64,000 nt of DNA from a virus: positions 10,286-74,285 of IMG/VR virus record IMGVR_UViG_3300009509_000013. One strand, given 5' to 3'. Shown here in pieces: positions 3,585-59,362 of the stretch. The notes under the pieces were generated by a model. It saw nothing but the letters and a program-made list of their open reading frames with translations. It was not told the DNA's origin and did no database searches. A program made the position numbers and the translations under genes. Position 1 is the stretch's first letter, and the number at the start of each line of letters is the position of its first letter.

Positions 3585-3628
3585 TGCCTTTTGCTCCCTT
3601 GCGACTCGCGCGCCGTCACTTCAACCGC

Positions 3629-3943
3629 CTATTCAATCGTTCCCGCCGCGTGTCCGTTGTCGATCAACCATTGGTAAAGAACGCGCTTCACGCCGGCATA
3701 AACGAGTTCGTCGGTCAAAGAAATTTCCGCGACAACCGCGTCATAATCGGAATCCGTCAAGACGAATCCTTTCGGTTTTCCGCCTTGACCTTGAACCCAA
3801 TCGTCGCCCGACACGTCGCCGAATTGAACCATGAATTCGATCAAGCCTTCGCGCCAAGTGAATTCGATTATCTTCGCGCGCGGATAGGTTTGACCCGGAT
3901 CGTTGTCGCCGGGATCAAAAGGCGTCGTCAAAAGAATCGGCAT
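3629..3943 (-). CDS. small fibre-associated protein (chaperone/adaptor candidate)
   Basis: ATG 3943 (MPILLTTPFDPG) after AAAGGGA; lies between the two fibre genes. Confidence 0.6.
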   Translation of the reverse strand: MPILLTTPFDPGDNDPGQTYPRAKIIEFTWREGLIEFMVQFGDVSGDDWVQGQGGKPKGFVLTDSDYDAVVAEISLTDELVYAGVKRVLYQWLIDNGHAAGTIE

Positions 3944-3956
3944 TGCAAGTCCCTTT

Positions 3957-6900
3957 CTATGCCGCCGCCGCTTCAAGCGCCGCGATTCGCTCCGCTTGTG
4001 CGTCGACAATGGTCTTCAATTTCTTGATTGCTTCAACAAGATAGCATTCGAGCCCGGCGAGATTCGTGTGTTTCACGCCCGGTTCTCCCGGTTGCCGACC
4101 TTCGAAATCTTGATCGGTGTTTTGAACCCAATCGGGCTTGATCGCTTCAACCTCTTGAGCAATGAAGCCCGTCACAACGTCGCCGCCGTTGCTTCCGTGT
4201 TTTTCGGGATTCTTCCATTTGAACGTGCGCCCCTTCAAACGACAAATCACGTCAAGCGGATCGGCGGTTTCTGTCAAATCTCGAATATCGATCTTGATTC
4301 GAGCGTCCGACGTGTTGACCCAATAGATCCCCGTCGTCTTCCCGGCGTTTCCGTTGCAATAGAACGCGCCGCCGGCAACGCAACCGTCCGCTTGCGTATA
4401 GAGCGAATCAGTGTAATTCGTATGATCCGCGAAAAAGTTCCATTGACCGCCCGTTGAATCGTATCCGGTCGAATCGTTGAATCGAAAATAATCCTGATTC
4501 GTTCCCGTCGTCGTGCTTGGCGTCCCAAAGAACAACCCGCCGGCGACGCAAAGCCCGGTCGCAATATAAGTTCCGTGCGCGTATGTCGAAGCCGTGTAAG
4601 ACGTCGTTCCTATCGCGACTTTCGTCGCCGCGCCGTCAATCGTCATCATTGCAAACGTTCCCGCCCCAAGGTGAAGCCTTTGGGTCGAGTGATCATAGTC
4701 AATGTAACCGTCTTGACTGTTTTCCGGGTCGGCAAATGACAATCGCCCATAAGATGCGTTGTCGGTTGCGATTGTGATCCCGGTGTTCCCGCTCGAATTC
4801 GTCACAACAAGATCGTCCCAATTCGTGTGTGGCGTTCCGCTATACATTGACCCGTTGCCAGAAACGAAAGTCGAGTTCCCTTGCCAATAGACGCGCCATG
4901 AAGTCGGCGTTCCGAGCGCGCCGCCCAAGTTGCCGTGAAGAACCGGCCCGTCCGGTGTCAAGCCGGCATAAGTCGCGCCGCTCCCGGCCCAACGCAAAAC
5001 GTGATTCGTGTCGGTTCCCCAACCGCGAAGTTGAATGTGATGATCGTTGATTGCTATGATTTGCGAATCCGTGATTCGCATTACTTCGTCGGCGGCGGCG
5101 GCGGATTGTGTTCCCGCCCAAAAGTGAATCGTTCCATTCGCCGCAAGGTGAAGATCTTCGGTTCCGCCCGCGATCAAAGACGGATAAAGCGTTTCTTCGC
5201 CGGCATGAATGACAAGCTCCGCGCCCGGAGCGATCCAAAGATTGTGACCCGACGTGTAAGTTCCATAACGCCCAATGACGCTATTGGTCGCGCTCCCGTC
5301 GAAAAATTGGATTGACCCTTGCGTTCGAATGTTTCCGGCGACGTCGAGCAACCCGCCGAAATAGTCATGCGGCCCGCCCGAATAGATCCCGTAATTGATC
5401 GCCGCGCCGCTTTGTTGTTGAACCAAAAGCCCGTATTTCGTCGTCGTGTTCGACGAAGTTCCGTTCAAGATTTCAACGCCAACCGCCGAAGTGAAACTTC
5501 CCAAACTTCCGGGATCGGTCAAGACGCGAAGCGCTCGACACGCGCCGCCGGCGACGTTGCCGGAGCTTCCCGCGCGAATGTATGCGCCTTCAATCGTCGA
5601 TTGTGAACCGCCGTCGTTTCGATAGTTGCGCCCGTGAATGTATGCCGCGCGCATCAAATAGGTGTTGTTCCCGTAAGCAAAGGCTTCAACTTGCGCGTGG
5701 TTTTGTTCGGCGGTTGTCAATGCCGAATAGTTTTCAGTCAAATAGAGTCGCCCGCCAAAAGCGCGGATCGCGTAATTGTTGACCGGGGAAGACGCGCCCG
5801 AAACGCCGGCGATTCGAATCGCGCATTTGTCGCCGGAAATTGTTCCGGCGGAAGCGCCGTCTTGAATGTAGATTGTCGAAAGGTTGCCCGTGACCGTGTG
5901 ACCCGCTTGAACGTCCGCTTGAAGATTCAACGTTTCGACGTTTCCGGTTGAAGCGCCGCTTCCGCCGGCGTTTGCGCGGATATAGGCGGCGCGAAGTCCC
6001 GACCATGTTCCGCTTGTCGCGGTCAAATCGGTGTTCACAACCAAGCCATAGGGCGAATTGGTTCCCGTGTTGTTCGTGAAATCGAAATCGAAGAAGACGC
6101 CGCGAGCGCTCGAATAGGTCAAAGCGCCATAGCTTTTCGAAACCTTCAAGATTTCGTCGAGCGAACCGAGCGTCGACGAAGTTCCGACTTGAAGCGCGTC
6201 GAACCAACCTTCGGCCCAATGCGTCGCCGCCGCGCCTATGTCATACGTCGAAGCGCTTGAAGGAACGACGTCGAAGCCGAAGCCATTGTTGATCACAATG
6301 TCGTTCGTGTTGACGGTCCCGAAGTAACCGTTCGGCCAACGGTCGCCGCTTGTTCCAATGTCATAACTTCCATTCGGTCGAAGCGTCGCCGCGACGTGAA
6401 TCCAATCGGTTGAATCCTTGTCGCAATGAAGCCAAGTTTTGCTTGTGCTGAAATCCCCGCCCGCCGCCGTGTTTTCTTGAAGATAGAATTCGCCGGCGTT
6501 CAAGATTTGACGCCAAAGCCCGCCCGCCGTGTAACCAATATCGGTTTCACGGAAATTCAAAGTCGGAGTTCCGCGTTCAAGTTGCAAATAGCCGTGAATA
6601 TCCAATGAACCGGCAATATCCGACCAACCCGTTCCGTTCACGTCGAGTTCGCCGCCGACTTGAAAATCGCCGCCGACCGAAGACGTTCCCGTTCCGTTCG
6701 CAGAAATGACGCCCGCGAGAACTTGAAGATTCCCGGTTGTGATTCGAGCGCCGCCCGTGACGCCTAGTTGATAGGTCGCGTCGGGAGCTTGCCCCATTCC
6801 GACGCGCCCGGAAGCGCCGTCAACATAGAAATAGTTCGCGCTCCCGCCCGTGTCCGTATGCCGCCAAGTTCCTTTGATCAAATGCGAGTCGCCCGAATTG

Positions 6901-45515: not shown

Positions 45516-45518
45516 GTC

Positions 45519-46870: not shown

Positions 46871-47538
46871 ATTTCCGCCTTTCGCTTTCGAACGACACGT
46901 CGCCCGCCGTGAACCTTGTTCGCTTTCGCCTTGTTCGTCTTGTTCTTTGCCTTCGTCTTCCCCGTGTTCCCCGCTTTCGTCATTGGAGCCGGCGGGAGCG
47001 CCGGCTTTTCGTCATAATGCAACGCGCCGGGGTCCATGTCCAAAATTGACTGTTCCCCGTATTTCCCGATCAACGAATTCAAATTCGCGAGTTCGCTTGT
47101 GATCATGGTTCGAAGTTGTTTGTTCGTCATGTCCGAAACCATGACGCCGGCGAGAATTCGCTTTTCTTCGGGTCGCTTGTCGATCAACCCAATGTCTTGA
47201 CCGAACTTCACGATCTTGTCGACAATATCCGACTTCGCCCGGATTGCCCCGACGCGCGCCGAAAGTTGTCCGGGAGCGAAGACGTCGCCCAATTCGTCGA
47301 GCGCCTTCAAGCAAGCCCGTTGCTCGACCATGTAATCGACGAAGACTTCTTCGACGGGTCGATTTCGGAGCCGTTCGCCTTCGAGTTCGTAAAGCTTCCG
47401 CTTCAACCGATCAAATTGATCTTGTTCAAGCCCCATTGCGTCGCGAGCTTCGGCGTCGGACATTCCTTCGCCCAAGTGTGCAAGCAAGCGCGCAACCGCT
47501 CCGCGAAGTTCGTCTTTTGTCATTCCGAGCGTTGCCAT
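46867..47538 (-). CDS. terminase small subunit candidate
   Basis: First gene of the late operon; N-terminal HTH-like helices, helical core, basic tail. Confidence 0.55.
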   Translation of the reverse strand: MATLGMTKDELRGAVARLLAHLGEGMSDAEARDAMGLEQDQFDRLKRKLYELEGERLRNRPVEEVFVDYMVEQRACLKALDELGDVFAPGQLSARVGAIRAKSDIVDKIVKFGQDIGLIDKRPEEKRILAGVMVSDMTNKQLRTMITSELANLNSLIGKYGEQSILDMDPGALHYDEKPALPPAPMTKAGNTGKTKAKNKTNKAKANKVHGGRRVVRKRKAEM

Positions 47539-47546
47539 TGCGCGGA

Positions 47547-47580
47547 ATTATAGACCGAAAAGAGCAAAAAAACCTAGCGA
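47547..47580 (-). promoter_or_regulatory. putative late promoter (TATAAT without consensus -35; near-leaderless mRNA)
   Basis: TATAAT at 47552-47547, 8 nt before the ATG at 47538; no SD. Confidence 0.5.
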
Positions 47581-47610
47581 AACGCCGGGAAGTCGATTCG
47601 TAAACGGAAC

Positions 47611-47636
47611 GCCGGCGGGGAGAATCCCCCGCCGGC
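47611..47636 (-). terminator. strong hairpin closing the early region
   Basis: GCCGGCGGGG / CCCCGCCGGC perfect 10-bp stem. Confidence 0.6.
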
Positions 47637-47666
47637 AACGGAACGGAAAGGAACGGAGATCAAAAA

Positions 47667-48386
47667 CTAGGCGACGCGCAAAAGCGAACGTTCAACGCCC
47701 TTCGATTGTGCCTTCGCGCGCCTTCGCGCGTCAAGCTTTTTCAAGCAACGTTCGGCTTTTGTTTCGTATTCGTCGCGCCGCTTTTCTGTCGGCGAACAAC
47801 CCGCCGCCGCCAACCAATGCCCGGCGGCTTCCGAATAGCGAAGCTCCGCTTCGGCGTCGCGCGCGAGCTTCGCCCAATACGCCGGCGAACGTTGCTCCGC
47901 TTCGGAGCGCCGCTTTCGTTCGTAATAGTCAACCTTCGCTTGCCATTTCGACAATTGAGTTCGAAGCCGCTTGATCTTCGTCGTCAATTCTTTGACCTTC
48001 GCCTTCGCCTTGCGTTCCCGACCTTCCGACGCGAGCGCCGCGCGCTCCGCCTTCGACTTCGGTTGAAGCGGAACCTTCCGGCGAAGCTCGATCCCGTCGA
48101 CTTCAACCGCCATGATCCAAGGGTTTTCGGGAGCCGCGTCGCGACCGCCGGCGACGAACGCGCAACCCCAAGCGAGCGCTTGCGCGACCTTCGTCACGTC
48201 GACCGCGCCCTTCGGGATTCTCAGGCGAATTGACGACCGCCCCGCCCTAACTGTCGGGTGACTTTGCCGCGCGCCCGTGACCGTCAACGTCGCGCGCGTG
48301 ACGCCCCATTCGCGAGCGATCCGCGTGAACAAGCTTCGGAGATCGCGCCCGTTCAAGTCGGTCTTGTTCTCGATTGCGAGCTTCAT
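47667..48386 (-). CDS. hypothetical basic coiled-coil protein
   Basis: 239 aa; ATGA overlap with the receiver gene. Confidence 0.65.
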   Translation of the reverse strand: MKLAIENKTDLNGRDLRSLFTRIAREWGVTRATLTVTGARQSHPTVRAGRSSIRLRIPKGAVDVTKVAQALAWGCAFVAGGRDAAPENPWIMAVEVDGIELRRKVPLQPKSKAERAALASEGRERKAKAKVKELTTKIKRLRTQLSKWQAKVDYYERKRRSEAEQRSPAYWAKLARDAEAELRYSEAAGHWLAAAGCSPTEKRRDEYETKAERCLKKLDARRRAKAQSKGVERSLLRVA

Positions 48387-48721
48387 TTTTCCCCGCCTTT
48401 CGGTTGAAGCGCGGCTTCAATCGCCGCGCGAAGTGTCGTTCGACTTGCCGGCTTGCTCAAAATGGCGACCGCGCCAATCGGTTGAAGCGCCATTGACCCG
48501 GAGTGAATGACAACCGGAACCGGCGATTCTTCGAGAACGCGAGCCCCGCCGCCGTTCGGCATGACCCAATCGGAAACGACGACCGCCGCTTCGGAGTAAA
48601 GCGCCGCCGCTTCAACCGGGTCGCTCGCCGTCACGACGTCGAAGCCTTCCCGCCGAAGCTCGCGCTCGACCGCCTTCAAGATCTCCGGCGTGTCGTCGAC
48701 AATCAAAATCTTCGTGTTCAT
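48383..48721 (-). CDS. single-domain response regulator receiver (CheY-like)
   Basis: ILIVDD, phospho-acceptor SDWVMP..GG, IHSG and LSKP all present. Confidence 0.9.
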   Translation of the reverse strand: MNTKILIVDDTPEILKAVERELRREGFDVVTASDPVEAAALYSEAAVVVSDWVMPNGGGARVLEESPVPVVIHSGSMALQPIGAVAILSKPASRTTLRAAIEAALQPKGGEK

Positions 48722-48777
48722 ATTCCCCGCCTTTCGGGGCGAAGCTCCGGGCTTTCGCCCGGAGCCCGCCGCCCTGT

Positions 48778-49662
48778 TTAGATCGCTTCGGCGATCAATT
48801 CCGCTTCGGCTTCAACCGCCGCTTCGAGCATGTAACGGCGAATCCCCCGGAAGCGCTTCGTTTGAATCGCGACCGGATTCACGAACTCGACGAAATCGCC
48901 GGTCACTTGAACGGCTTCCGGCTCGATCAAGCCTTGCGCGACCAATTCGTCGACGGTCGCTTCGGCTTTCGCGCTCGGAGCTTCCGCCGGACGGGTGACG
49001 ACATAGGAGCCGCCGACCTTGCGCTTCCCGCATTTTCTTTCTTGCTCCAAGGCGACCGCGCCTTCGGGAATCAAGTCAACGCCCTTCGCCGCGATCTTGT
49101 CGCGAGCTTCGGCTTCCATTGCGTCGGAAACGATGTATTCCGCCGCGCTCGGAACGTAAAGCCCGAAGATTCGGCCAAGGGGAAGACGACCGGAGCCGCC
49201 GCAACGCTCGCACATTTTCTTGGCGTCGTCCGCGACTTCGCCGGTCGGCTTGCCGTCGCGTTCGTTGTGCTTCGCGTGACGTCGCATTCCGAGCCAATCG
49301 CGATAGGCGAGTTCGGTTCCGTCGTCGAGCTTCACCTTCCCGCCGGTTCCGCGAACGATCTCGCCCAACCCGCCGCAATCGCCGCAAGCAACCGGCTTGC
49401 CGTCTTGCTCGGTCGCGACGATCTCGCCCTTGCCGGAGCATGTTTCGCAAGCTTTGACTTCGAGGCAATCCGGGCAATCTTCATGCTCGCCTTCGTCGTG
49501 CGCCACGAAGACGACCGTTCCCGGCTCCATAAGCGCCGCCGCGATATGGTGATTCGGGACGCGCTTCGAAAGCCCTTGCTCTTTGACTTCCGTCATGAAC
49601 GCTTCAATCGTCGGATAGTCGCGAGCGCCAACCCATTGAAGATATGTCTTGTTGATTTGCAT
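48778..49662 (-). CDS. protein with DnaJ-type CxxCxGxG zinc-finger repeats
   Basis: CPDC, CETCSGKG, CGDCGGLG and CERCGGSG; AAAGGA SD. Confidence 0.75.
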   Translation of the reverse strand: MQINKTYLQWVGARDYPTIEAFMTEVKEQGLSKRVPNHHIAAALMEPGTVVFVAHDEGEHEDCPDCLEVKACETCSGKGEIVATEQDGKPVACGDCGGLGEIVRGTGGKVKLDDGTELAYRDWLGMRRHAKHNERDGKPTGEVADDAKKMCERCGGSGRLPLGRIFGLYVPSAAEYIVSDAMEAEARDKIAAKGVDLIPEGAVALEQERKCGKRKVGGSYVVTRPAEAPSAKAEATVDELVAQGLIEPEAVQVTGDFVEFVNPVAIQTKRFRGIRRYMLEAAVEAEAELIAEAI

Positions 49663-49697
49663 TGTCCGATCCTTTCGTTTCGTGTTCCGTTGTTCCG

Positions 49698-49765
49698 TTC
49701 TATACTTAGTGTCTCAAATTTCGGTTGAAGTGTCAAGCCTAATTTCGAAAAAAATCACCTAAAAA
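49698..49765 (-). promoter_or_regulatory. early promoter cassette 1
   Basis: TTGACA (49736-49731), 17 nt beginning CTTCAACCG, GACACT (49713-49708); upstream T tracts. Confidence 0.75.
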
Positions 49766-49786
49766 TTCCCCTGAAATATTGCAGTT

Positions 49787-49963
49787 TTAGACCTTCCAAG
49801 GCGGCTTGACCCGCTCGACCTTGCCGGCTTTCGTGTTCCGGGAACGGTTGTTTTTGGAGCGCGAAAAAAGCGAGCGCTCGAAGCCGTCGTTCCGGTCGGC
49901 GTAAGAACCAAGCTCGACCGAAAGCGCGCGACGAAGTGAAAGCGTTGAAGCGTTGCAAGTCAT
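49787..49963 (-). CDS. 58-aa basic protein (not in ORF track)
   Basis: AACGGAGATCGGAACC-ATG; MTCNASTLSLRRAL...KPPWKV*. Confidence 0.45.
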   Translation of the reverse strand: MTCNASTLSLRRALSVELGSYADRNDGFERSLFSRSKNNRSRNTKAGKVERVKPPWKV

Positions 49964-50026
49964 GGTTCCGATCTCCGTTCCTTCCGTTGCCGGCGGAGCC
50001 CCGCGCCCCGCCGGAGTTCGGTCGAC

Positions 50027-50323
50027 CTATCGGTCGACCTTCGGGCAAAGGTCGCCTTGTGCGACCGCCGCCCGGAGCCAAGCCCGCGCGAAAGCTTTCG
50101 CCTTCGCGACGGACGAAAAGCCGCGCCCGCCGTCGATTGCTTCCCAAATGTGACCGAGCATTCCGAGCCGGTCGACGCGATAGTCGCCTTCGCGACCGTC
50201 GATTCGGAACGCGAGCGAATGAACCCGCGAGCCGATCTTCGCGGTTGCGGTTGCGCCATAAATGCGGGAGTCGACTTTTTTGAACGTCATGGTTGAAGCT
50301 CCGTTGTTTGTCGTGTTCTTCAT
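50027..50323 (-). CDS. small early protein
   Basis: MKNT start at the promoter, or internal ATG 50290 with GGAG SD. Confidence 0.6.
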   Translation of the reverse strand: MKNTTNNGASTMTFKKVDSRIYGATATAKIGSRVHSLAFRIDGREGDYRVDRLGMLGHIWEAIDGGRGFSSVAKAKAFARAWLRAAVAQGDLCPKVDR

Positions 50324-50390
50324 TCTATACTTAGTGTCTCATGAATCGGTTGAAGTGTCAACCCCTAATTTCAAAAAAAATGATCTTTTT
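50312..50390 (-). promoter_or_regulatory. early promoter cassette 2
   Basis: TTGACA (50361-50356)-N17-GACACT (50338-50333)-AAGTATAGA-ATGAAGAACACG. Confidence 0.75.
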
Positions 50391-50449
50391 TCTGCTAGGA
50401 AAAATTGAAGTTTTGGCGGGGAGTTCGGGAGCGCGAAGCGCTTCAACCG

Positions 50450-50677
50450 TCAATAAAGAATCGTGTCGAAGCCCAACGAATCGCGCCGCCGGGGAAGGTC
50501 GCGCTTCGGAACGCCGGCTTCCGCCGCGCAAAACCCGACAAGTTCCGGCGAATCCGTGACGATCCCGACGCAAGTCTTCCCGAACATTCCGCGCCCGGAA
50601 TAGTCGCGATAAACGCGCGCGCTTGCGCCTTCGTCTTCCATGCGTTCAACGATTGCTTCCGCTTGTTCAAGTGTCAT
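50450..50677 (-). CDS. small early protein
   Basis: ACGGAGATCGGAACA-ATG; YSGRGMFGKTC.GIV...DSLG...ILY motif typical of small phage proteins. Confidence 0.65.
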   Translation of the reverse strand: MTLEQAEAIVERMEDEGASARVYRDYSGRGMFGKTCVGIVTDSPELVGFCAAEAGVPKRDLPRRRDSLGFDTILY

Positions 50678-50749
50678 TGTTCCGATCTCCGTCAATGAAC
50701 GACGGAGCCCGCCGGCGACCGCCGCCGGCGAAGCTCCGCGCGTTCGTGT

Positions 50750-50950
50750 TCACTTGCAAAACCGGGGAGCCGCGCCCCAACGTTCCGACGTGACGCGATC
50801 CGCTTCTTTGACGATCAAAAGATCGGCGTCCGCGCGATAGCCCATGACGACCGCCTTCACGCCGAAATTTTCGACGACGTGACCGAAGGCGACCCAACGC
50901 CCCGACGCGATCTTGACCGGCTCCATTCTGTCGTTTTCGAATTGTCGCAT
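50750..50950 (-). CDS. small early protein
   Basis: CGGAG SD before ATG 50950 (MRQFENDR). Confidence 0.55.
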   Translation of the reverse strand: MRQFENDRMEPVKIASGRWVAFGHVVENFGVKAVVMGYRADADLLIVKEADRVTSERWGAAPRFCK

Positions 50951-51015
50951 TTGCTCCGCTCCGTTTCGGTTGAAGGGGAGCGCCGGGGTCGAGCCCCGCG
51001 CGCTCCGCGTTTCTG

Positions 51016-51330
51016 TTACTTGTTCACCATGCGATAGATCGTTTCGTTCAAGTTCTCGACGAAGACGCCGTTCGCCGACTCGACGACTTTCATTTCGTAG
51101 GTTCGGCGATTGAAGCGAACGAACTCGACGTCGTAAAGGTCGAGCGCTCGGTCGAGCTTGACGACGATCTTCGTCAACTTCGAACGACCGACGACGAAGT
51201 GAAGACCGTCTTCGCCCGCGACCGCTTGACGCGCTCCGCAAGCCATTTTTGTTCCGACCGTGATTTGACTCCAAATGATTTGACCCGCGTTCATGGTTTC
51301 CGTTCCTTTCGTTGTGTCCGTGTTCTTCAT
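51016..51330 (-). CDS. small early protein
   Basis: MKNT start or ATG 51294 with AAAGGA; I..QI...GAR...DLYDVEF...GVFVENL motif. Confidence 0.65.
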   Translation of the reverse strand: MKNTDTTKGTETMNAGQIIWSQITVGTKMACGARQAVAGEDGLHFVVGRSKLTKIVVKLDRALDLYDVEFVRFNRRTYEMKVVESANGVFVENLNETIYRMVNK

Positions 51331-51418
51331 TCTATACTTAGTGTCTCATAAAAAGCGGAGCCCGTCAAGCAAAAACGACAAGAAAAATTGAAAAAACGAC
51401 ATGAATTTTTCAAATATT
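51319..51418 (-). promoter_or_regulatory. early promoter cassette 3
   Basis: TTGACG (51368-51363)-N17-GACACT (51345-51340); 51363-51418 is identical to 53081-53136. Confidence 0.75.
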
Positions 51419-51502
51419 AGAGCCAAAACAGAGCCAAAACAGAGCCAAATTTCGTCAATAATTACGCCTAGTTGTGAACGACGCCCTAGAATGCCCTAGA
51501 AT
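51419..51502. repeat. short tandem repeats
   Basis: AGAGCCAAAAC x2 plus a partial third (51419-51449); GCCCTAGAAT x2 (51483-51502). Confidence 0.85.
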
Positions 51503-51607
51503 CGACGCAACGAAGCCCGCCCTTGTCCGCGCCCGTGCGACCCCTGAAACGCGCTTGACGCCCCGGAATTCGCGCCCCTATGCCCAAAATTGAGCCCTTC
51601 CGCCGGC

Positions 51608-51752
51608 GATTCAACCGTTCGGGGAAGCGACGCTTCAACCGTTGCGCCCCGCTTCAACCGTTCGGGAGCCGTCGCTTCAACCGAAAGTGATCCAAGGGAT
51701 CGAAGCCCGATCCGGTCGGCTTGCGCCGACCGGCGAGCGCTCGCTTCAACCG
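51608..51752. repeat. cluster of TTCAACCG repeats in non-coding DNA
   Basis: TTCAACCG at 51610, 51634, 51653, 51676 and 51745. Confidence 0.85.
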
Positions 51753-52108
51753 TGATACGCGGCGACGACCGAAACCTTCCCGGCGATCTCGCGTTTGAAC
51801 TCCGCGACCATTTCGGGATCGAACGACCGGAACCGCGACCGGGAAGTCGACACGCCGTTCGCGCTTGTCGTCGACTCGCCGAAGATCGAAGCCGGGGTCG
51901 GTTGGTTCCAACCGTCAACGATCAAAATGAACGGAGCGAAGCCGCCGACGATCTCCGACTCGCTCCGCTTGCGCTTCGCGACGAAGCGAACGAACGGCGC
52001 GGCGTCGTATTGCGCCCAAGTCTTGCGCCCGTGTTCGATCAACTTCGCTTCAATCGCGATCACGTTTCCGAAAAGCTCGCTCTTTGTGTAAATCGTGACC
52101 TTTCGCAT
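51746..52108 (-). CDS. small early protein
   Basis: 120 aa; AAAGGG SD. Confidence 0.65.
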   Translation of the reverse strand: MRKVTIYTKSELFGNVIAIEAKLIEHGRKTWAQYDAAPFVRFVAKRKRSESEIVGGFAPFILIVDGWNQPTPASIFGESTTSANGVSTSRSRFRSFDPEMVAEFKREIAGKVSVVAAYHG

Positions 52109-52121
52109 TGTTCCGACCCTT

Positions 52122-52250
52122 TCAAGCCTTGCGGCTTATGGTTGCGCGCTTCGCGGTTCCGGTCGTCGGGCGAACTTGGCAAGCGTTCCCGGTTGCCAGC
52201 GTTGCCAGAATGACCATGATCGCGAATGCTTTGTTTGCCGTGTTCTTCAT
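52122..52250 (-). CDS. 42-aa signal-peptide-like ORF (not in ORF track)
   Basis: MKNTANKAFAIMVILATLATGNACQVRPTTGTAKRATISRKA* beginning at the cassette 4 start site. Confidence 0.45.
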   Translation of the reverse strand: MKNTANKAFAIMVILATLATGNACQVRPTTGTAKRATISRKA

Positions 52251-52320
52251 TCTATACTTAGTGTCTCATAAATCGGTTGAAGCGTCAAGCAAAAAACGCA
52301 AGAAAATCTGATTTTTTTCG
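52239..52320 (-). promoter_or_regulatory. early promoter cassette 4
   Basis: TTGACG (52288-52283)-CTTCAACCG...N17-GACACT (52265-52260)-AAGTATAGA-ATGAAGAACACG. Confidence 0.75.
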
Positions 52321-52364
52321 GGTTATTTTTCGGATATTTAGACGAAGGCGGCGATTTTTCGACG

Positions 52365-52392
52365 AAAACCGCCGGGAATCGAACCCGGCGGC
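52365..52392 (-). terminator. intrinsic terminator
   Basis: GCCGCCGGG-TTCGATT-CCCGGCGGT-TTTC after the stop at 52406. Confidence 0.6.
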
Positions 52393-52405
52393 TTGCGTTT
52401 CCGAC

Positions 52406-53020
52406 CTAGTAAAGCGCCTTGACCGCTTCGAGCAACCGGCGAGCCGTCACGACGTCGCCCGCGTCGATTGCCGCTTCAACGCGCGCGTGAAGCAAGTTCC
52501 GAGCGTCGGCGATTGCGTCGTTCGTCATGGGGATCGAAAGAACGTTCGCGGCTTCGGCGACCGGCTCCGCTTCAACCGTCGCGGCTTCGACGATTGCTTC
52601 GGCGGAGATCACAACCGCCGGAGCCGCGCGGAGCGCTTCAAGTTGCGCGTCGGCGGCTTCGCGAACCGAAACATGCTTATAGAAATCAACGTCGAAATAG
52701 TCGGTCATTGAATCGGAGTCGTCGCGATTGTAGGCTTCGACGATCCCGGCGATCTTGTCTTCGGTTTCCTTCCAAGCGTCGAGCGCTTCCCAATCCCGCC
52801 CATATTCGTCGTTAGTGTCGCGAAGCGTGACGAATTGAACCGGAGCTTCTTTGACGTCGACGGAAAGGCTTTGGCCCATGCTGTAACGGGAAATCCGAAC
52901 GCCGAACTTCCAACCCTTGCCGAAAGCGGCTTTCAAGTCGGCGCGAACTTTCTTCGCGACGTCTTTCAAGTCTTGCCCGTTCTCGAATTTGCTTCCAATG
53001 TATCCGCGTCCGTAACTCAT
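52406..53020 (-). CDS. LPD29-like domain protein
   Basis: AKKVRADLK..F...KFGVR...YSMG.S..V...YN.DDSDSMTDYFDV motif; GGCGGAG SD. Confidence 0.7.
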   Translation of the reverse strand: MSYGRGYIGSKFENGQDLKDVAKKVRADLKAAFGKGWKFGVRISRYSMGQSLSVDVKEAPVQFVTLRDTNDEYGRDWEALDAWKETEDKIAGIVEAYNRDDSDSMTDYFDVDFYKHVSVREAADAQLEALRAAPAVVISAEAIVEAATVEAEPVAEAANVLSIPMTNDAIADARNLLHARVEAAIDAGDVVTARRLLEAVKALY

Positions 53021-53047
53021 GATCTCCGCCTTTCTTGTTGTGTTCCG

Positions 53048-53136
53048 TTCTATACTCTTTGTCTCATAAATCGGTTGAAGCGTCAAGCAAAAACGACAAG
53101 AAAAATTGAAAAAACGACATGAATTTTTCAAATATT
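53048..53136 (-). promoter_or_regulatory. early promoter cassette 5
   Basis: TTGACG (53086-53081)-CTTCAACCG...N17-GACAAA; duplicated 56-bp upstream block. Confidence 0.7.
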
Positions 53137-53335
53137 CGGATTCATTGAAGATTTTCTTCAAAAAAAATTGCTTTTTTGGGGTCGATTTTTCTGAAATTAG
53201 GCTTCGACGGAGCCCCGGAACGGAGAAACCGGAGCCCCGTCGAGCCCGAACGGAACGGAACGAAGTCGATTCGTTGACCCGGCGAGCCCCGCCGGGAGCC
53301 GCCGGCGGTTAGCGCCGGCGGCTTTCGTCGTCGGT

Positions 53336-53869
53336 TCAAGCGGCTTCGGGAATCACGAACGCGCCTTTCGGCCCGATTCCTTCGACGCCGGGGAAGTAAG
53401 CCTTCAAGACTGCCCAAAGATTCCCCTTGTAAGCCGCCGGGAACGTGTTCAACTTGGCTTGTTTGTCCCAACGTCGACCGGGAACCCGGCGGAGCGCGGC
53501 GACAAAGCCTTCGAAGTCTTCGTCGGTCGGCTTGGCGCGGAGCCCGATCCGGTCGCCTTCGAGTTCGACGATCTCGACCGGGCGAACGCGCTTCACGATC
53601 CGGTCGGCGAGCTTGTCGCAACCAAGCGCGCGGAGCGCGGCGACGCCTTCGACGACCGCGATCCCGGTCTGTTCAAGCGCGATTGCGTAAACGATCCGAT
53701 TCGCTTCGGCGCGCTTGTCTTCGTCGAGCGACGCGACGCCGTATTTCTTCCGGCAATCGGGACCGAGCCCGGCTTCGACGGAAGCGGCGTCAACCAAGGG
53801 ACGACCGCAAGCGGCGCAATGGGTCGCGAGCATTTGCGTTGCGGGAGCGTTTTCATAGTTGCTTGACAT
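53336..53869 (-). CDS. DUF6011-like Zn-finger protein with C-terminal HARP-like domain
   Basis: CAACGRPL.D..S...GLGPDC and C-terminal VPGRRWD...FP; ACGGAGATC SD. Confidence 0.7.
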   Translation of the reverse strand: MSSNYENAPATQMLATHCAACGRPLVDAASVEAGLGPDCRKKYGVASLDEDKRAEANRIVYAIALEQTGIAVVEGVAALRALGCDKLADRIVKRVRPVEIVELEGDRIGLRAKPTDEDFEGFVAALRRVPGRRWDKQAKLNTFPAAYKGNLWAVLKAYFPGVEGIGPKGAFVIPEAA

Positions 53870-53898
53870 GGTTTCGATCTCCGTTGTTTGTGTTCCGT

Positions 53899-54084
53899 TC
53901 AACCCTTCGCGATTTCGACCGCCGCGCGATAGCTTGAAAGATTCTCGCCGCGACCGTCGACCGTTCCGATTTCAAAGCCGTCGCCGATCCGCGTGACGAT
54001 TCGCCCGAAGACAACCGCCGTCGCGCCTTGCGAAAGCTCGAAAAGCCGTTTCCGAATGTTCTCGATTTTCTTTGCGTTGTTCAT
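53899..54084 (-). CDS. small early protein
   Basis: AAAGGGAACGGAAC-ATG directly after cassette 6. Confidence 0.6.
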   Translation of the reverse strand: MNNAKKIENIRKRLFELSQGATAVVFGRIVTRIGDGFEIGTVDGRGENLSSYRAAVEIAKG

Positions 54085-54096
54085 GTTCCGTTCCCT

Positions 54097-54165
54097 TTCT
54101 ATTCTCAGTGTCGCAAATTCCCGCGTTCGTGTCAAGTCTAATTTCGAAAAAATTCACCTAAAAAG
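54097..54165 (-). promoter_or_regulatory. early promoter cassette 6
   Basis: TTGACA (54135-54130)-N17-GACACT (54112-54107); upstream block nearly identical to 49731-49764. Confidence 0.7.
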
Positions 54166-54241
54166 TGATAGGAAAAACGCCAAATATTCCGACAATTTGA
54201 CAGAAAATGACCGCGAGCGCTTCAACGAATCGGCGTTTTGC

Positions 54242-54270
54242 TTGTCGATTTTAGTCAAAGCGGATAGAAT
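54242..54270 (+). promoter_or_regulatory. sigma70-like promoter of the divergent HTH operon
   Basis: TTGTCG-N17-TAGAAT. Confidence 0.55.
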
Positions 54271-54325
54271 TGAAGAATCAAGATTGACGCCGGCGGAACG
54301 CCGGCAAAACGACGGAGTTCACAAA

Positions 54326-54583
54326 ATGCCAAGGGGAAGAACCGCGAAGGTTGAACCGAAGACGGAAGGCGCGCGCCTTTTGCTCGAAGCAATCGAGAAC
54401 GATCCGAAGCTCGACCAAACCCGCGCGGCGCGTGAAGCCGGGCTTCCGCTCGGATTGATCAACCATATCTTGCACGGAAGGCGAAGCCTTTCGCTTGAAG
54501 TCGCCGTGAAAATCGAAAAGCGCTTCGGCGTTCCGCCGGCGGCTTGGTTGGAGCCCGCGCGCGAAAGCCGGGAAGCCGCATGA
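54326..54583 (+). CDS. XRE/HigA-type helix-turn-helix regulator
   Basis: QTRAAREAGL...INHILHGRRSLSLEVAVKIEKRFGVP..AWL; GGAG SD before ATG 54326. Confidence 0.85.
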   Translation: MPRGRTAKVEPKTEGARLLLEAIENDPKLDQTRAAREAGLPLGLINHILHGRRSLSLEVAVKIEKRFGVPPAAWLEPARESREAA

Positions 54584-54687
54584 AGTTGATCGCCCTTTTG
54601 ATTGCGGCGTTCGCCCTTTTGATCGTGTCGATCTTTCTTCATGCGTTCGCCGGAACGCCGGCGAATTTTGATCCGCTCGATCCCTAG
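54580..54687 (+). CDS. 35-aa single-TM peptide (not in ORF track)
   Basis: ATGA overlap with the HTH stop; MKLIALLIAAFALLIVSIFLHAFAGTPANFDPLDP*. Confidence 0.5.
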   Translation: MKLIALLIAAFALLIVSIFLHAFAGTPANFDPLDP

Positions 54688-54702
54688 CGGTATTCTCCCG
54701 CT

Positions 54703-54978
54703 ATGCCATTCCCAAACGAACACGCCGCGCGACAAGTCGACCCCGGTCAATTCGAAAGCTTTCGCCGAACCAAGCCGAAAGGTTTTCCGAAAGGGGTTTC
54801 GGCGATCATAGGAATTCGAAGCAACGGGAAGACCGCGATTCAATCGCTTCGCTTCGACAAAAATCTTTGGACAGTAGCGCAAGCGCGAACGTGGCTTCGA
54901 AACAACAAGTTCAAAACGACAATCGAACCCGCGAGCGGAAAGCCCGTCAACAAAAATTTTTGGGGGAACGCCGTTTGA
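54703..54978 (+). CDS. stand-alone head-associated domain protein
   Basis: MPFPNEHAAR..DP..F..FRR...QSLRFDK..WT..QA..W resembles a module I recall fused to phage head proteases; ends VNKNFWGNAV. Confidence 0.7.
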   Translation: MPFPNEHAARQVDPGQFESFRRTKPKGFPKGVSAIIGIRSNGKTAIQSLRFDKNLWTVAQARTWLRNNKFKTTIEPASGKPVNKNFWGNAV

Positions 54979-55169
54979 ATGATTGCCCGACATGCGAAGC
55001 AATGCGGGAGCAAGCCGAACGCCTTCGCGAAATCATTGAAGCCGACCGCGAGCGCGTAAAGCTCGCCGACGTCGTGATCGCCGCCGCGAGAAAATCAAAA
55101 GACGAAGACGTTCAACGCGCCGTTCGAATCTTCGACGAAGCGCTCGCCCTTCAAAGCGCGACGCCGTAA
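54975..55169 (+). CDS. small CxxC coiled-coil protein
   Basis: TTGA overlap; CPTC followed by a helix. Confidence 0.5.
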   Translation: MNDCPTCEAMREQAERLREIIEADRERVKLADVVIAAARKSKDEDVQRAVRIFDEALALQSATP

Positions 55170-55636
55170 GCGTGACCGACCGCGCGACACGCGCGACACA
55201 AACAGCATTGACAACCGTCCGAATGATGATTGCCACGAAGATTCGTCAAAATGATCTTCGCGCCGGCGAGCGACAAACCGCGTCGGGCTTTCGTCACGGC
55301 GTCGTCGTGAATTTCCGTCGCGCGTTGTTCGATTTCTTCGACGACGCGAGCCGCGACCGAATGCCAATTCTTTTCGGCGGCGTCTTCGTCGAATAGGTCG
55401 AAGCACGCTTCGCAAACCGCGTCTTCGATTGCGATCAAAATCGCCGGTTCAATCGTCGAAATCGGTTCCGGCTTTGGTTCCGGTTCGGGCTCCGGCTCCG
55501 GGTCGGGTTGCGCTTCGGGCTTGAACGTGACCTTCGTCGGCGTCAACGTGACTTTCGCGAAGTCTTGAAAGCCGAAGTTCGTCTTTCCGTTGCCGCCGTT
55601 TCCGCCCGACTTTGTGATCGCTTGAACCGCCGTCAT
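55151..55636 (-). CDS. hypothetical protein (PE repeats, C-terminal Cys cluster)
   Basis: ATGA overlap; PEPEPEPEP; CQCCLCRAC. Confidence 0.55.
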   Translation of the reverse strand: MTAVQAITKSGGNGGNGKTNFGFQDFAKVTLTPTKVTFKPEAQPDPEPEPEPEPKPEPISTIEPAILIAIEDAVCEACFDLFDEDAAEKNWHSVAARVVEEIEQRATEIHDDAVTKARRGLSLAGAKIILTNLRGNHHSDGCQCCLCRACRAVGHAYGVAL

Positions 55637-55920
55637 GACCGGACAAGCCGCAAGTGAAGTTGACGGTCGTCGACCTTTGGCTTCCGGTCTTGAAGCGCTT
55701 CGATTGTCGCGCAAGCCTTCGAAGTCGCCGCGTCGGTCGGCGCGATTCGGTCGGCGTCAAAACTTCCCTTCGCTTGAACGAATTCCGTGAACGCTTTCAA
55801 AAGTTGATCCCGTTCGTCTTTGAAGCGCGCGCCTTCGTCTTCAAGTTTTTGCATTTGACGAAGCAAGAAATCGCAATCGCGCTCCCGCGCTTCGAGCGCG
55901 GCTTTCGTTTCTTTGTCCAT
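55633..55920 (-). CDS. coiled-coil protein
   Basis: AACGGAGATCGAAAAC-ATG at 55920. Confidence 0.6.
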   Translation of the reverse strand: MDKETKAALEARERDCDFLLRQMQKLEDEGARFKDERDQLLKAFTEFVQAKGSFDADRIAPTDAATSKACATIEALQDRKPKVDDRQLHLRLVRS

Positions 55921-56071
55921 GTTTTCGATCTCCGTTCTTTCGGCCCGAACCTTCACTTGAAACACGCCGGAGCGACGCGCGCAACAAACAAAACGCGACG
56001 CCGCTCCGCCGAAAACGAAAACTTCGCGCCATTTCTCGCGAAGAATCTTCAAATTCGAACCGATCTTTTCG

Positions 56072-56371
56072 TTATGGTTTGACAATCGTCGGGTGATTCT
56101 TTTCCGCTTCGATTGCGTTCGCCTTCGCTTCGAGAACCCAAAGCGCCGCGATCCGAGTCAATTCGGCGTAAAGATTCGAAACGATAGCGTTCGCCGATTG
56201 CGTCGACGTTCCAATCGCCGCGAAACCGAGCCCGACTTCGTTTCCGAGCGCTTCGGACATTTCCGAAAACTTCGCGAGCGCTTCAACGCCCGTTTCGGTC
56301 GCCGCCTTCAATTGATCGAGATAGTCGGCGAGCTTTGGATTCAAGCCGCGAATCGAGTCATTTTCTGCCAT
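56072..56371 (-). CDS. helical hypothetical protein
   Basis: GGAAAGGGA SD before ATG 56371. Confidence 0.6.
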   Translation of the reverse strand: MAENDSIRGLNPKLADYLDQLKAATETGVEALAKFSEMSEALGNEVGLGFAAIGTSTQSANAIVSNLYAELTRIAALWVLEAKANAIEAEKNHPTIVKP

Positions 56372-56780
56372 TGTCTTTCCCTTTCCAAATCCGTTTGATT
56401 GCATTGACGAAGCCGACCTTCGGCTTCGGTGTTCCCTGTATCCATTCGGGCGCGACGACCTTCGACCGAATGCTTCGCGTTTCAACCGGAACGCCAAGTT
56501 CTTTTGAATGATTGATTCCTTCGATCATTCCTTCGGTCAATCCCCGGTCGAGATAAACGACCGTCGCGTCGGCGAAGCCGCGCCAAGCGAACCCGGCTTC
56601 GATTCCCTTCCGTCTTTCTTCGGGCTTCGTGTCGTCGAGAACGCCCTTTTGCGTATAGAGCAAATGGGAAGCGAACGGCGCTTCGTCGCGCTTCAAGCAA
56701 TCGGCGAGACATTCGCGCCCATAGATTTCATTCGCTTCGACGTCGCCCGAATATGGCGATTCGACAATGACCCTTCGCAT
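56358..56780 (-). CDS. nucleoside 2-deoxyribosyltransferase-like Rossmann-fold protein
   Basis: VIVESPYSGD..N..Y...C...EAPFASHLLY...LDD..PEER..GI.AG...VVY.D.G.T.GM; TGATG coupling. Confidence 0.7.
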   Translation of the reverse strand: MRRVIVESPYSGDVEANEIYGRECLADCLKRDEAPFASHLLYTQKGVLDDTKPEERRKGIEAGFAWRGFADATVVYLDRGLTEGMIEGINHSKELGVPVETRSIRSKVVAPEWIQGTPKPKVGFVNAIKRIWKGKDNGRK

Positions 56781-57535
56781 CAAAGCGCCCGCGTGTCGAT
56801 AAACCACGAAACGAGAAACGTCACGATCTTTTCGGAGTAACCTTCGCGAAGCACAACGCGCCCGACGATCACGGGGTCGCCGCGTCGACGTCGCGGCGGA
56901 AGCGCGCCCAATTCGTCGAAGATCTTTTTCTTCATGGCGCGATCCGTGTCTTTCAAGATTTGCGGCTTCGCGACCGCAAACGGAAAATCAACTTCGGTGA
57001 ACTCGACCGGGGTCGAATAGTGAATCTTCGTCATTTTCCCGTTGCGGTCTTCTTTCTCCCGCGTGTCCGTTGTCGCAAGCGGAGCCGGGTCGACGTAATC
57101 GCCGACGCCTTCCGGCGGCGAGTTCGTGTTTTGATCGTTGACCCATTGCCCGAATTGTTCCTTTTGAACCGGCTTGTCGCGCGTCGTCCGAATCGCGAAG
57201 ACGTCGACCGGGAAGTTCGGAACGATACAATAGCCGGCTTCGAGCGCCGCCTTCACCTTGCGATAGAACTCGACTTGACGTTCGGCGCGCCGGAGCCGTG
57301 TCTTCCAAGGCGCGACGCGCCATTTCGAAGCGCGCGCGATCTCCAAGTTCTCCGCGATCTCCGATTTGTCTCGCTCGATCTCCGCGATCTTCGCTTCGGC
57401 CCAAGCAATCAAGCCGCGTTGCGCGACTTCCATTTCGGCGGGATCGCGAGCGATCACGATCACGTCTTCGGCTCCCGGCGGAATCGTTTCAACCGTCGCC
57501 GACTCTTGCTTCGTCAACGCCTTCGTTTCTGTCAT
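56780..57535 (-). CDS. hypothetical protein (coiled-coil N-terminus)
   Basis: 251 aa; GGAG SD; coupled. Confidence 0.7.
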   Translation of the reverse strand: MTETKALTKQESATVETIPPGAEDVIVIARDPAEMEVAQRGLIAWAEAKIAEIERDKSEIAENLEIARASKWRVAPWKTRLRRAERQVEFYRKVKAALEAGYCIVPNFPVDVFAIRTTRDKPVQKEQFGQWVNDQNTNSPPEGVGDYVDPAPLATTDTREKEDRNGKMTKIHYSTPVEFTEVDFPFAVAKPQILKDTDRAMKKKIFDELGALPPRRRRGDPVIVGRVVLREGYSEKIVTFLVSWFIDTRAL

Positions 57536-57714
57536 GACTCCAACCTTTCACGAATTCGGGCTTCCGCGATTTCGACGTGAAACGACGAACGCGCGTAAGC
57601 TTCAACCAAAAGCATTCCGGGAATCCAAGCGATCACAATCGCAAACCGCAAGACATACCACGGAAGCAAGACGACCCGACGAACGCCTTCGAAGATTCGA
57701 TCACGAAGAAACAT
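57532..57714 (-). CDS. small membrane protein
   Basis: 60 aa with a hydrophobic core; overlaps both neighbours. Confidence 0.5.
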   Translation of the reverse strand: MFLRDRIFEGVRRVVLLPWYVLRFAIVIAWIPGMLLVEAYARSSFHVEIAEARIRERLES

Positions 57715-58393
57715 TGTCTTCGCCTTCCGGGAGCGCCTTCACGTCATGAACGCGAAGCGCCGTTCGACGCAATTCTTCGAGCCCGGTTCTTTCGACGACG
57801 CCCGTCACGAATGCTTCGACTTCCGCCTTCGCCGTTGAAACGACCTTTTCGGTTGCGTCTTGAAATTGATCGAGAACGAACGGAATGTTCGATTCGATTT
57901 CTTGCTCGATTTGTTCAAGAATCGAAACGAATTCTTTGATCACGCCTTTCGTCGCCTTGCCTTGCTTGTGCAATTGTTCGGCGCGTCGCCGGTGATCGCT
58001 AATGTATCGCCGGAAACGTTCAAGCCGACCGACAAAGCCGTTCCGAATTCGGTCGAGTTCGATTTCGTCGTCGGGCGGTTCGGCCATTTGCTTTCCGTTG
58101 AATTGCTTCAACGTGCAAGGAACGCCGTCGCCAACGTTCAACGTCGTCAACAATGTCGCGAATTGAGCGGACGAAAGTTCAACTTCGATCAACTTTTGAT
58201 CGGCGAACGCCCGATCTTCCGAAAGCCCGTGTCGCCTATGCGCCGTGTGAATCCGAAGAATCATGCTCGACCCATGATCCCGAAGCGACGAACCGAACAA
58301 GCGCCGCTTCCCGCCGCCATAGATTCGAGCGAATCCGATCATTCCGTAGGATTCATGACGATCAACAATGTCTTCTTCTTTGTCGAATGACAT
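57701..58393 (-). CDS. conserved-looking phage hypothetical protein
   Basis: HESYGMI.F.R...LFGS...IEV.LS..QFA...N.G.GVPCT motif, then coiled coil. Confidence 0.7.
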   Translation of the reverse strand: MSFDKEEDIVDRHESYGMIGFARIYGGGKRRLFGSSLRDHGSSMILRIHTAHRRHGLSEDRAFADQKLIEVELSSAQFATLLTTLNVGDGVPCTLKQFNGKQMAEPPDDEIELDRIRNGFVGRLERFRRYISDHRRRAEQLHKQGKATKGVIKEFVSILEQIEQEIESNIPFVLDQFQDATEKVVSTAKAEVEAFVTGVVERTGLEELRRTALRVHDVKALPEGEDNVSS

Positions 58394-58397: not shown

Positions 58398-58685
58398 TCA
58401 CCTTTCCAATTTCTTGACCGCGTTTCGCGCCGTCTTCATTTTTCCTTCGGAGAACATGACGCCGCCGGCTCCGTCGAGAAAGAACGTCGCCGCTTCCGCG
58501 ACGACCTTCGCTTCGCGTTCCGTCAACGCCGGCGTTGCGCTTCGAACCGCTTCGAGCGCTTCAAGCAAAACGTCGTGTTCGCCTTGCGTCTTCGCGAAGT
58601 CTTCGACCGGATAGTCAATCGAGATCTTCAACGCGACTTCGAGCGCCGAAAGTTGCTTCTTTGTTACTTCAACCGCAAGCTTCAT
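58398..58685 (-). CDS. hypothetical protein
   Basis: 95 aa; ATGA overlap. Confidence 0.6.
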   Translation of the reverse strand: MKLAVEVTKKQLSALEVALKISIDYPVEDFAKTQGEHDVLLEALEAVRSATPALTEREAKVVAEAATFFLDGAGGVMFSEGKMKTARNAVKKLER

Positions 58686-58888
58686 TGAATCCCCGCCAAT
58701 CCCGACTTGACCGTTTTCGGTTTCGTCTTGAATTTCTTTTGCATTGCCAACCGGAGCGCAAGCGCGATCCGGTGAAGAATCGGATCGTCGGCGTCAATGA
58801 TTGTCGCTCGAATCATGACCTTTTCGAGCGCTTCCGATTCGTCTTTCGACAACGCCAACAAAATTCGATCATTCCCGTTGTGTTTCAT
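58682..58888 (-). CDS. hypothetical protein
   Basis: 68 aa; AGGGA SD. Confidence 0.55.
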   Translation of the reverse strand: MKHNGNDRILLALSKDESEALEKVMIRATIIDADDPILHRIALALRLAMQKKFKTKPKTVKSGLAGIQ

Positions 58889-58897
58889 TGCTATTCC

Positions 58898-59362
58898 CTA
58901 GCGCGGAAGAATTGTGTCGCCTGAAAGAATGCTTTCGACGGTTCGTTCAAGTTCTTCGACGCGCGCTTGAAGCGCGTCGTCGGGCTTCGCTTCAACCGCC
59001 TTTTCAAGTTCCGCGATTTGCGCGACAAGCGTTCCGATTGTTTCGTCGCGTTCGGCGACCTTCCGGTCGGCGTCCGACAATTTGAAATCAAGATCTTCGA
59101 TCTTCGCCTTCAACCGCATGTTCTCCGCGACCGTCTTGTCGTGATCGGAGAATCGCCGCGCGTTCCGGGGAGCCGCCGCGCGAACATGGTCAAGCGCCGT
59201 CGTCAACCGTTGAAGCGCTCGCGCCCCTTGTTCGTCGTCCGCGAATTTCGCCCGACAAGCCCCGTCAAGAATTGCTTCGATTGCTTGCCGCTCGCCTTCG
59301 GACATGACGACTTCGACCTTCGTGTCGTCGTCGACAACGTTCCAATTGACAACCGTGTTCAT
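58898..59362 (-). CDS. coiled-coil protein
   Basis: ATGA overlap at 59362; heptad pattern. Confidence 0.6.
   Translation of the reverse strand: MNTVVNWNVVDDDTKVEVVMSEGERQAIEAILDGACRAKFADDEQGARALQRLTTALDHVRAAAPRNARRFSDHDKTVAENMRLKAKIEDLDFKLSDADRKVAERDETIGTLVAQIAELEKAVEAKPDDALQARVEELERTVESILSGDTILPR

Follow-up and report, generated by a model that had tools for sequence, protein, structure and literature searches.

A nine-base DNA word at most synonymous coding opportunities in the genome of an uncultivated myovirus

The virus record IMGVR_UViG_3300009509_000013 (74,285 bp; whole-genome record L008) holds the genome of an uncultivated myovirus in which a nine-base word, CTTCAACCG/CGGTTGAAG, recurs far above expectation. 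We analysed bases 10286–74285 of this record, a 64,000-nucleotide window that leaves 10.3 kb of the genome outside, and extended the counts to the whole genome where stated. The main new result is saturation: 52 of the 68 places (76%) at which a protein permits the word by synonymous choice alone carry it, whereas the codon usage of the genome would predict 9.3. The word also occupies a fixed place in early promoters, forms a short non-coding array and is nearly absent from related phages. Coordinates are window positions unless stated otherwise.

Abundance, sharpness and saturation of the word

The window contains exactly 57 copies, the first at 3619 and the last at 59116, with 29 on the plus strand and 28 on the minus strand. 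Another 12 lie outside the window, giving 69 in the whole genome, or 929 per Mb. An earlier reading of this DNA, made from the letters only (hereafter the sequence-only reading), had counted by eye about 57 copies in 64 kb, in both orientations and several reading frames, where base composition predicted fewer than one. That count proved exact, and dinucleotide shuffles of the window yielded a mean of 0.84 copies (s.d. 0.88, maximum 4).

Strict null models were needed for the word because CTT and CAA are enriched 1.6- to 2-fold in this genome as substitutes for CTG and CAG. Across the whole genome, CAG/CTG occurs 138 times against about 1,065 expected, an approximately 8-fold depletion, and GAGG/CCTC, TTAA, GATG/CATC, GTAC and GGCC are depleted 5- to 15-fold. 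This pattern probably reflects avoidance of many restriction-type enzymes. The excess of the word persists under the high-order and codon-preserving nulls that the sequence-only reading had proposed: Markov models of order 1, 2 and 3 predict 1.1, 5.7 and 7.8 copies, and a shuffle of the synonymous codons inside each gene retains 29.2 ± 2.6 copies in total (maximum 38 in 300 shuffles). Since 20 of these are copies that the procedure leaves unshuffled, about 9 coding copies are expected, compared with 49 seen. The word is a real DNA-level signal.

Its edges are sharp. All 27 one-mismatch neighbours occur at most 19 times, compared with 69 for the word itself, and when all frequent 9-mers were scored against the codon-shuffle null, CTTCAACCG ranked top. 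Aligning the 69 copies reveals an invariant 9-mer preceded by a semi-conserved CG, with C at position −2 in 52 of 69 and G at −1 in 47 of 69; the flanks are otherwise unconserved. The best description is therefore the asymmetric, sharp-edged 11-mer CGCTTCAACCG, present in 42 copies. The runner-up, TCGCCGGCG, was considered as a second discrete word and rejected, as its 49 copies compare with 43 for its best neighbour and it stands in ordinary codon context. In the literature, the word turns up in PCR primers only.

Coding copies use every stop-free frame (L-Q-P, x-S-T-x, x-F-N-R, R-L-K and x-V-E-x), the sixth frame containing TGA. We defined an opportunity as a codon-aligned peptide able to encode the word by synonymous choice alone, that is, L-Q-P, [SPTA]-S-T-[VADEG], x-F-N-R, R-L-K or [SPTA]-V-E-[VADEG]. 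All nine L-Q-P opportunities carry the word, as do 11 of the 15 x-S-T-x opportunities, though TCA and ACC make up fractions of only 0.11 and 0.21 of the codons for their amino acids. Of the 16 opportunities left unused, 11 are one substitution short of the word. The extent of this use, rare codons included, and the proximity of most unused sites to the word argue that nearly every copy is individually favoured, wherever it is located and in either orientation. Saturation of this kind points to something that reads CTTCAACCG.

Comparison with relatives indicates how the copies arose. At the conserved residues SSTG, PSTD, PFNR and ASTE, relatives encode the same amino acids with other codons, which argues that point substitutions created the copies where they now stand, for the most part without cost to the proteins. 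In the large terminase (TerL), the word sits on R-L-K, the consensus of 120 homologues. Identity to relatives is 0.46 at word codons and 0.52 overall in the same alignments. An origin by insertion or from a mobile element was ruled out, given the unconserved flanks and the orthologous positions that keep their residues with other codons. We also considered that selection had reshaped the proteins themselves, as word-permitting peptides number 68 compared with 30.7 in residue-shuffled proteins. This claim was withdrawn because relatives hold nearly as many permitting peptides over the same homologous alignments (26 versus 29, 18 versus 24 and 2 versus 7).

The word is not conserved in related phages, a point on which the sequence-only reading had suggested a comparison: relatives with TerL 59–70% identical and genomes of 60–114 kb hold 0–2 copies, and three related phage genomes show neither the word nor avoidance of the CAG/CTG type. 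Judged by the genomes compared, the word appears to be private to this phage lineage.

Within the genome, copies are spread through all gene modules at 0.8–1.2 per kb, with a density peak of ~3 per kb around the early promoters. Their spacing is somewhat clustered (coefficient of variation 1.34, p about 0.005), with four gaps of 5–6 kb. About 55 of the 69 copies (about 80%) lie inside coding sequence and at least 13 lie outside genes, the promoter and array copies included; several that a simple gene caller left outside genes fall in real genes. One such gene, at 27634–27862 on the minus strand, is small and lipoprotein-like, with a signal peptide ending in LLYAC, and holds three copies. A stand-alone response-regulator receiver domain gene (48383–48721, 112 amino acids) likewise holds three copies in 339 nt.

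In a codon-usage gene model, all of the ~81 genes lie on the minus strand; a probable XRE/HigA-type gene at 54326–54583 is the single plus-strand exception. Against this one-sided transcription, the copies are not strand-polarised, as the sequence-only reading had remarked in setting them apart from stoperators: over the whole genome, 39 are antisense and 30 sense to transcription (p=0.34). Replichore-like bipolarity was likewise not significant, as the best two-arc model fits 48 of the 69 sites (permutation p=0.17). The density of the word and that of surviving avoided 4-mers show a weak negative correlation in 2.5-kb bins of the whole genome (rho −0.38, p=0.04); word-poor segments could have been acquired more recently.

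Early promoters and the non-coding array

A family of six minus-strand promoters lies between 49.7 and 54.1 kb, at 49715, 50340, 51347, 52267, 53065 and 54114. Each comprises a T-rich upstream part, the hexamer TTGACR, a 17-nt spacer, TGaGACACT and AAGTATAGAA. The sequence-only reading had placed the word directly after the −35 hexamer in four of six early promoters, near 49722, 50347, 52274 and 53072. These positions are exact, and in each of the four the word forms the first nine bases of the spacer. The promoters and the array discussed below are as follows.

49698–49736, minus strand: promoter p49715, with TTGACA, the word at 49722–49730 as the first 9 nt of the 17-nt spacer, TGaGACACT and AAGTATAGAA
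50323–50361, minus strand: promoter p50340, word at 50347–50355, same spacer position as in p49715
51330–51368, minus strand: promoter p51347, without the word; 35 nt upstream identical to p53065, spacer replaced as a block
52250–52288, minus strand: promoter p52267, word at 52274–52282, same spacer position as in p49715
53048–53086, minus strand: promoter p53065, word at 53072–53080, same spacer position as in p49715
54097–54135, minus strand: promoter p54114, without the word; upstream part nearly identical to p49715, spacer unrelated; adjoins the XRE gene
51609–51752, plus strand: non-coding direct array, with the variant ATTCAACCG at 51609–51617 and exact copies at 51633, 51652, 51675 and 51744

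Aligning the six promoters resolves two upstream subfamilies, and each includes promoters with the word and promoters without it that otherwise hardly differ. The upstream parts of p53065 and p51347 match at all 35 positions, those of p49715 and p54114 at all but two, and both pairs are set apart by replacement of the spacer as a block. The block swap in both subfamilies suggests that the placement is common to two promoter lineages and exchanged as a module, as expected of an operator, and it supports an operator-like position of the word at the four early promoters.

The cluster that the sequence-only reading had marked in non-coding DNA at 51608–51752 is real. It occupies 144 bp between gene 51746–52108 and p51347 and consists of four exact copies and the variant, all direct, spaced by 24, 19, 23 and 69 nt, so that copies stand about two helical turns apart. 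The last copy overlaps the stop codon of gene 51746–52108: at 51744–51752, the stop-containing frame of the word (C-GGT-TGA-AG) supplies the actual stop. Adjoining the array, upstream of p51347, positions 51400–51510 contain two copies of TCTAGGGC, three copies of GTTTTGGCTCT and an AT-rich stretch, and this region could be a replication origin or control region.

Five direct copies beside short repeats and AT-rich DNA recall iteron origins and the centromeres of type Ib/II plasmids, in which direct repeats are bound cooperatively. To our knowledge, iterons and centromere repeats stay within a single locus, whereas this genome has another 64 copies outside the array.

Candidate readers and competing explanations

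Three proteins were considered as candidates for binding the word, two of which, the proteins with helix-turn-helix (HTH) segments at 54326 and 61875, had been named by the sequence-only reading.

54326–54583, plus strand: XRE/VapI/HigA-type HTH protein, 85 amino acids; the sole plausible plus-strand gene
47667–48386, minus strand: lineage-specific protein of 239 amino acids, candidate reader; isoelectric point 10.5, 23% lysine plus arginine, low-confidence, largely helical model
61875–62930, minus strand: protein of 351 amino acids, candidate reader; weak C-terminal match to an excisionase/MerR-type HTH (HTH_17)

The XRE protein matches VapI/HigA structures (3trb, E=1.3e-4). Three copies of a 15–16-mer palindrome, GCCGGCG-GAA-CGCCGGC, bracket its gene at 54288–54303, 54526–54541 and 54648–54662, and a palindrome is the usual type of operator for XRE-type dimers. 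Upstream of the gene, the word is represented by a two-mismatch look-alike only. Flanked in this way by what are probably its own operators, the XRE protein probably reads these palindromes and is an unlikely reader of the 9-mer.

The protein at 61875 has weak HTH_17 and excisionase-like matches and a low-confidence model, and we assign no protein to the word. The 239-amino-acid protein is the most suggestive among 39 called proteins without a tblastn match in relatives; it has no family match. Structure models of these two candidates (47667–48386 and 61875–62930) reached predicted local distance difference test (pLDDT) scores of 63 and 58, too poor for fold searches. Of the two small genes on either side of the array, one is an orphan and the other belongs to a phage-only family without assigned function, and the ESM Atlas gave no lead for either.

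Three forms of dispersed word are known: stoperators, which are intergenic and co-oriented with transcription; polar Chi sites; and uptake sequences, which fill the host genome as well. The word fits none of them cleanly. We tentatively favour the reading that a sequence-specific DNA-binding protein, probably encoded by the phage, recognises the word, which would act as an operator at the four early promoters and whose occupancy across the genome would be under selection. An asymmetric 9+2-bp site without flank conservation would match the footprint expected of a monomeric DNA-binding domain. Such a protein, most likely encoded by the phage lineage, would read CTTCAACCG, optimally CGCTTCAACCG, on duplex DNA. 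Bound in the spacer directly after the −35 hexamer, it would exclude RNA polymerase, so that the four word-bearing promoters would be switched off together while their two word-less sisters would escape. The five direct copies of the array may serve as a high-avidity nucleation site or as a sink. The ~55 intragenic copies would be kept by selection on each copy, and occupancy of the whole genome would therefore seem important, be it to silence, to roadblock or to mark phage DNA as own. If a phage protein does read the word, this would be a novel means by which a virus addresses its genome as a whole, and would offer a compact 9–11-bp protein–DNA recognition pair.

The nearest precedent for an operator network of this kind is provided by the stoperators of Cluster A mycobacteriophages (L5, Bxb1 and TipsytheTRex), 13-mers found at promoters and in short intergenic gaps, which follow the direction of transcription and lose their activity on inversion (PMC9283540). 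Both are short asymmetric sites, read by a monomer in the mycobacteriophages, that are lineage-specific and present in dozens of copies. A stoperator network calls for more than 20 asymmetric sites across the phage genome, early promoters included, and the 69 copies here include four in early promoters. By contrast, the orientation rule of stoperators does not hold in this genome, where genes occupy one strand and sites are divided 39:30, nor does their location rule, as most copies are intragenic and use the bulk of the synonymous opportunities.

Several points weigh against an operator network with selected occupancy. We know of no operator or stoperator network with ~80% of its sites inside genes, no fixed orientation and near-saturation. 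Non-coding DNA holds only ~2 copies per kb; if each added copy were simply an advantage, far more would be expected there. Duplication of paralogous promoters, or recombination among them, could account in part for the four promoter copies, and the sole clear HTH protein has palindromic operators of its own. Searches of Pfam, PHROGs, PDB sequences and the ESM Atlas, together with the two AlphaFold models, yielded no binding protein. No immunity repressor like the two-domain, monomeric L5 gp71 was recognised: the early proteins gave no family or PDB match, although distant homology is possible.

A related but rather unlikely alternative takes the word as a phage-private self-mark, read on duplex DNA by a phage protein in either orientation, that sets the phage genome apart from the host chromosome for protection, silencing, replication or packaging. 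Selection would then have installed it at nearly every position that the proteome tolerates. Base modification plays a self-marking role in phages such as T4; if this alternative is true, the word would be a sequence-based form of self-marking of a viral genome.

The main rival, which is about as doubtful as the self-mark and was not considered by the sequence-only reading, is an uptake-type word of the host, of the kind represented by the DNA uptake sequence (DUS) of Neisseria and the uptake signal sequence (USS) of Pasteurellaceae. The host would favour DNA bearing the word during uptake, and a long-resident prophage would accumulate such a word to host density by the same transformation–recombination drive. 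Statistically, it is uptake sequences that the word resembles most: they too are 9–12 nt long with a semi-conserved extension, here 2 nt beyond the 9-mer core, and they occur about once per kb in both orientations without polarity and in all frames, for the most part where the protein sequence is unaffected. Temperate phages of Pasteurellaceae accumulate the host USS, which saturates near 750 per Mb, and probably lytic ones do not (PMC6776037). The 929 copies per Mb seen here and the modest excess in non-coding DNA would fit this rival, and an XRE-type regulator that is divergently transcribed and has operators of its own would be in keeping with a temperate lifestyle.

The drive behind an uptake word would leave unexplained the identical placement in two promoter subfamilies and the five direct copies within 144 bp. 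This fixed promoter-spacer placement and the tandem array set the word apart from DUS and USS, and inverted-pair terminators are not prominent. We know of uptake sequences in two bacterial families only. No integrase, transposase or partition gene was found among the non-structural genes scanned, and no lysogeny gene came to light.

Nor did a word-bearing host genome emerge from 406 sampled bacterial genomes (5 + 401; for one of them, G393, which is unpublished, only its count of 4 was used). The 11-mer CGCTTCAACCG occurs 4–10 times in each of five sediment-type genomes of 2.5–7.9 Mb, and its maximum among 401 evenly drawn Pseudomonadota genomes is 23 copies in 6.8 Mb, similar to a reversed-word control. 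Expressed as density, this is 1–3 per Mb in bacterial genomes versus 565 per Mb in the phage. A scan of 185,579 species genomes for two 11-mers within 30 nt returned at least 120 loci, nearly all from different taxa. Among the matches listed, none had dispersed copies in both orientations, and the multi-copy loci were one-strand tandem repeats of period 9–21 or similar local arrays. Should a host nevertheless read the word, the phage would point to a new bacterial group, one whose DNA uptake is sequence-specific or whose Chi is long, and CTTCAACCG would be a host-prediction marker for sediment viromes.

An improbable explanation, well behind the two preceding ones, is that the word is the target of a DNA-modifying or nicking enzyme (a methyltransferase, a hypermodification enzyme or a T5-type nickase), with sites favoured because modification or nicking is useful. 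Non-palindromic sites of 9–11 bp are typical of some methyltransferases and nickases, and the genome is under extreme restriction-type pressure, as its depleted words attest. It also encodes a pyruvoyl-type S-adenosylmethionine decarboxylase and a MazG-like pyrophosphatase (45519–45884 and L008:2–508). However, no methyltransferase, nuclease or recombinase was recognised among the non-structural genes scanned, and we know of no modification system that selects for more target sites. The idea that the 9-mer shields surviving restriction-type words was ruled out, as these words do not cluster near it and give no sign of local shielding.

Very unlikely is a Chi-like signal that tames a helicase–nuclease (RecBCD/AddAB, of host or phage), protecting linear phage DNA and promoting recombination-dependent growth. 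The sequence-only reading had offered a Chi- or parS-like host signal as its alternative, and the results weaken it. The benefit of such a signal would be additive and position-independent, and neither a recombination module nor a RecBCD inhibitor was recognised in the genes scanned. The reverse strand of the word contains GAAGCG, which we take to resemble a Gram-positive Chi. Known Chi sequences are 5–8 nt long, not 9–11, and none of the sampled bacterial genomes is enriched for the word, the 11-mer being at background there.

Chi also acts in one orientation. Some phages accumulate host Chi to about one per 1.9 kb, and in Chi-rich lambdoid phages without recombination modules the copies run 20:3 in LLS and 32:0 in MD8, near one genome end (PMC12315714). 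As in those phages, the word is short, far above chance (23–32 copies there) and apparently useful copy by copy; but their Chi sites are 8-mers, 87–100% in one orientation and clustered, whereas the word is non-polar, in both the 39:30 split and the bipolar model.

Least probable of all is a functionless by-product of a vocabulary narrowed by many avoided words and codon-pair bias: the CTT and CAA substitutes and the many GC-rich 9-mers that likewise exceed the codon-shuffle null speak for it, but the word needs rare codons and still fills most x-S-T-x positions, its neighbours are not enriched, and at least 13 copies lie outside genes, in promoters and array among other places. What probability remains we leave to mechanisms not yet thought of.

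The phage, its variants and other repeats

The window encodes a tail sheath, baseplate wedge, tape measure, portal and large terminase, which identify a myovirus; an N4-like phage was ruled out by the sheath, baseplate and tape measure. Read along the minus strand, early genes (~64000 to 45000) are followed by terminase, head, tail and fibre genes, lysis genes, and genes for a UvsW-like helicase, a DnaC/IstB-like loader and DnaB, the last three wrapping round the contig end. No DNA polymerase or primase was recognised in the genes scanned.

Among cultured phages, the genome has no close match, and a search of IMG/VR, a JGI metagenome scan and a search of 5.8 billion proteins gave no relative with TerL identity above 76%. 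Near-identical sequence nonetheless recurs in marine-sediment, mangrove and soil metagenomes, in runs of ~9 studies. The genome therefore belongs to a real, widespread uncultivated phage, and a nanopore or assembly artefact was ruled out by the same recurrence.

One soil run (X15) contains a natural variant that is ~4% divergent, with ~833 substitutions over the 20 kb from 38001 to 58000, a stretch that holds 26 copies of the word. A contig from this run joins 56773 to 57551 with 19 other letters between, and the 251-amino-acid gene at 56780–57535 is therefore missing from the variant.

Two viral contigs with dispersed copies, L012 and L016 (IMG/VR 3300019839_000015 and 3300017569_000111), proved to come from an unrelated phage, whose 9-nt periodic leader repeats include the word among their units. 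Their intergenic leaders consist of the 9-nt units CTTCAACCG, CTTCAATCG, ATTAAATCG, TTTCAGTCG and TTTCTCTCG and precede several genes, all in one orientation. Repeats of other kinds occur in the related phages. In G002 and G001, a ~17-nt block from ribosome site to start, AAGGAGAACCGGCCATG, is repeated about 10–12 times, and G003 (47% GC) has GC-rich 8- and 9-mers in excess, with 40 copies of CGCTCGAG, 29 of GCGGTCGC and 22 of CGCGGTCGC.

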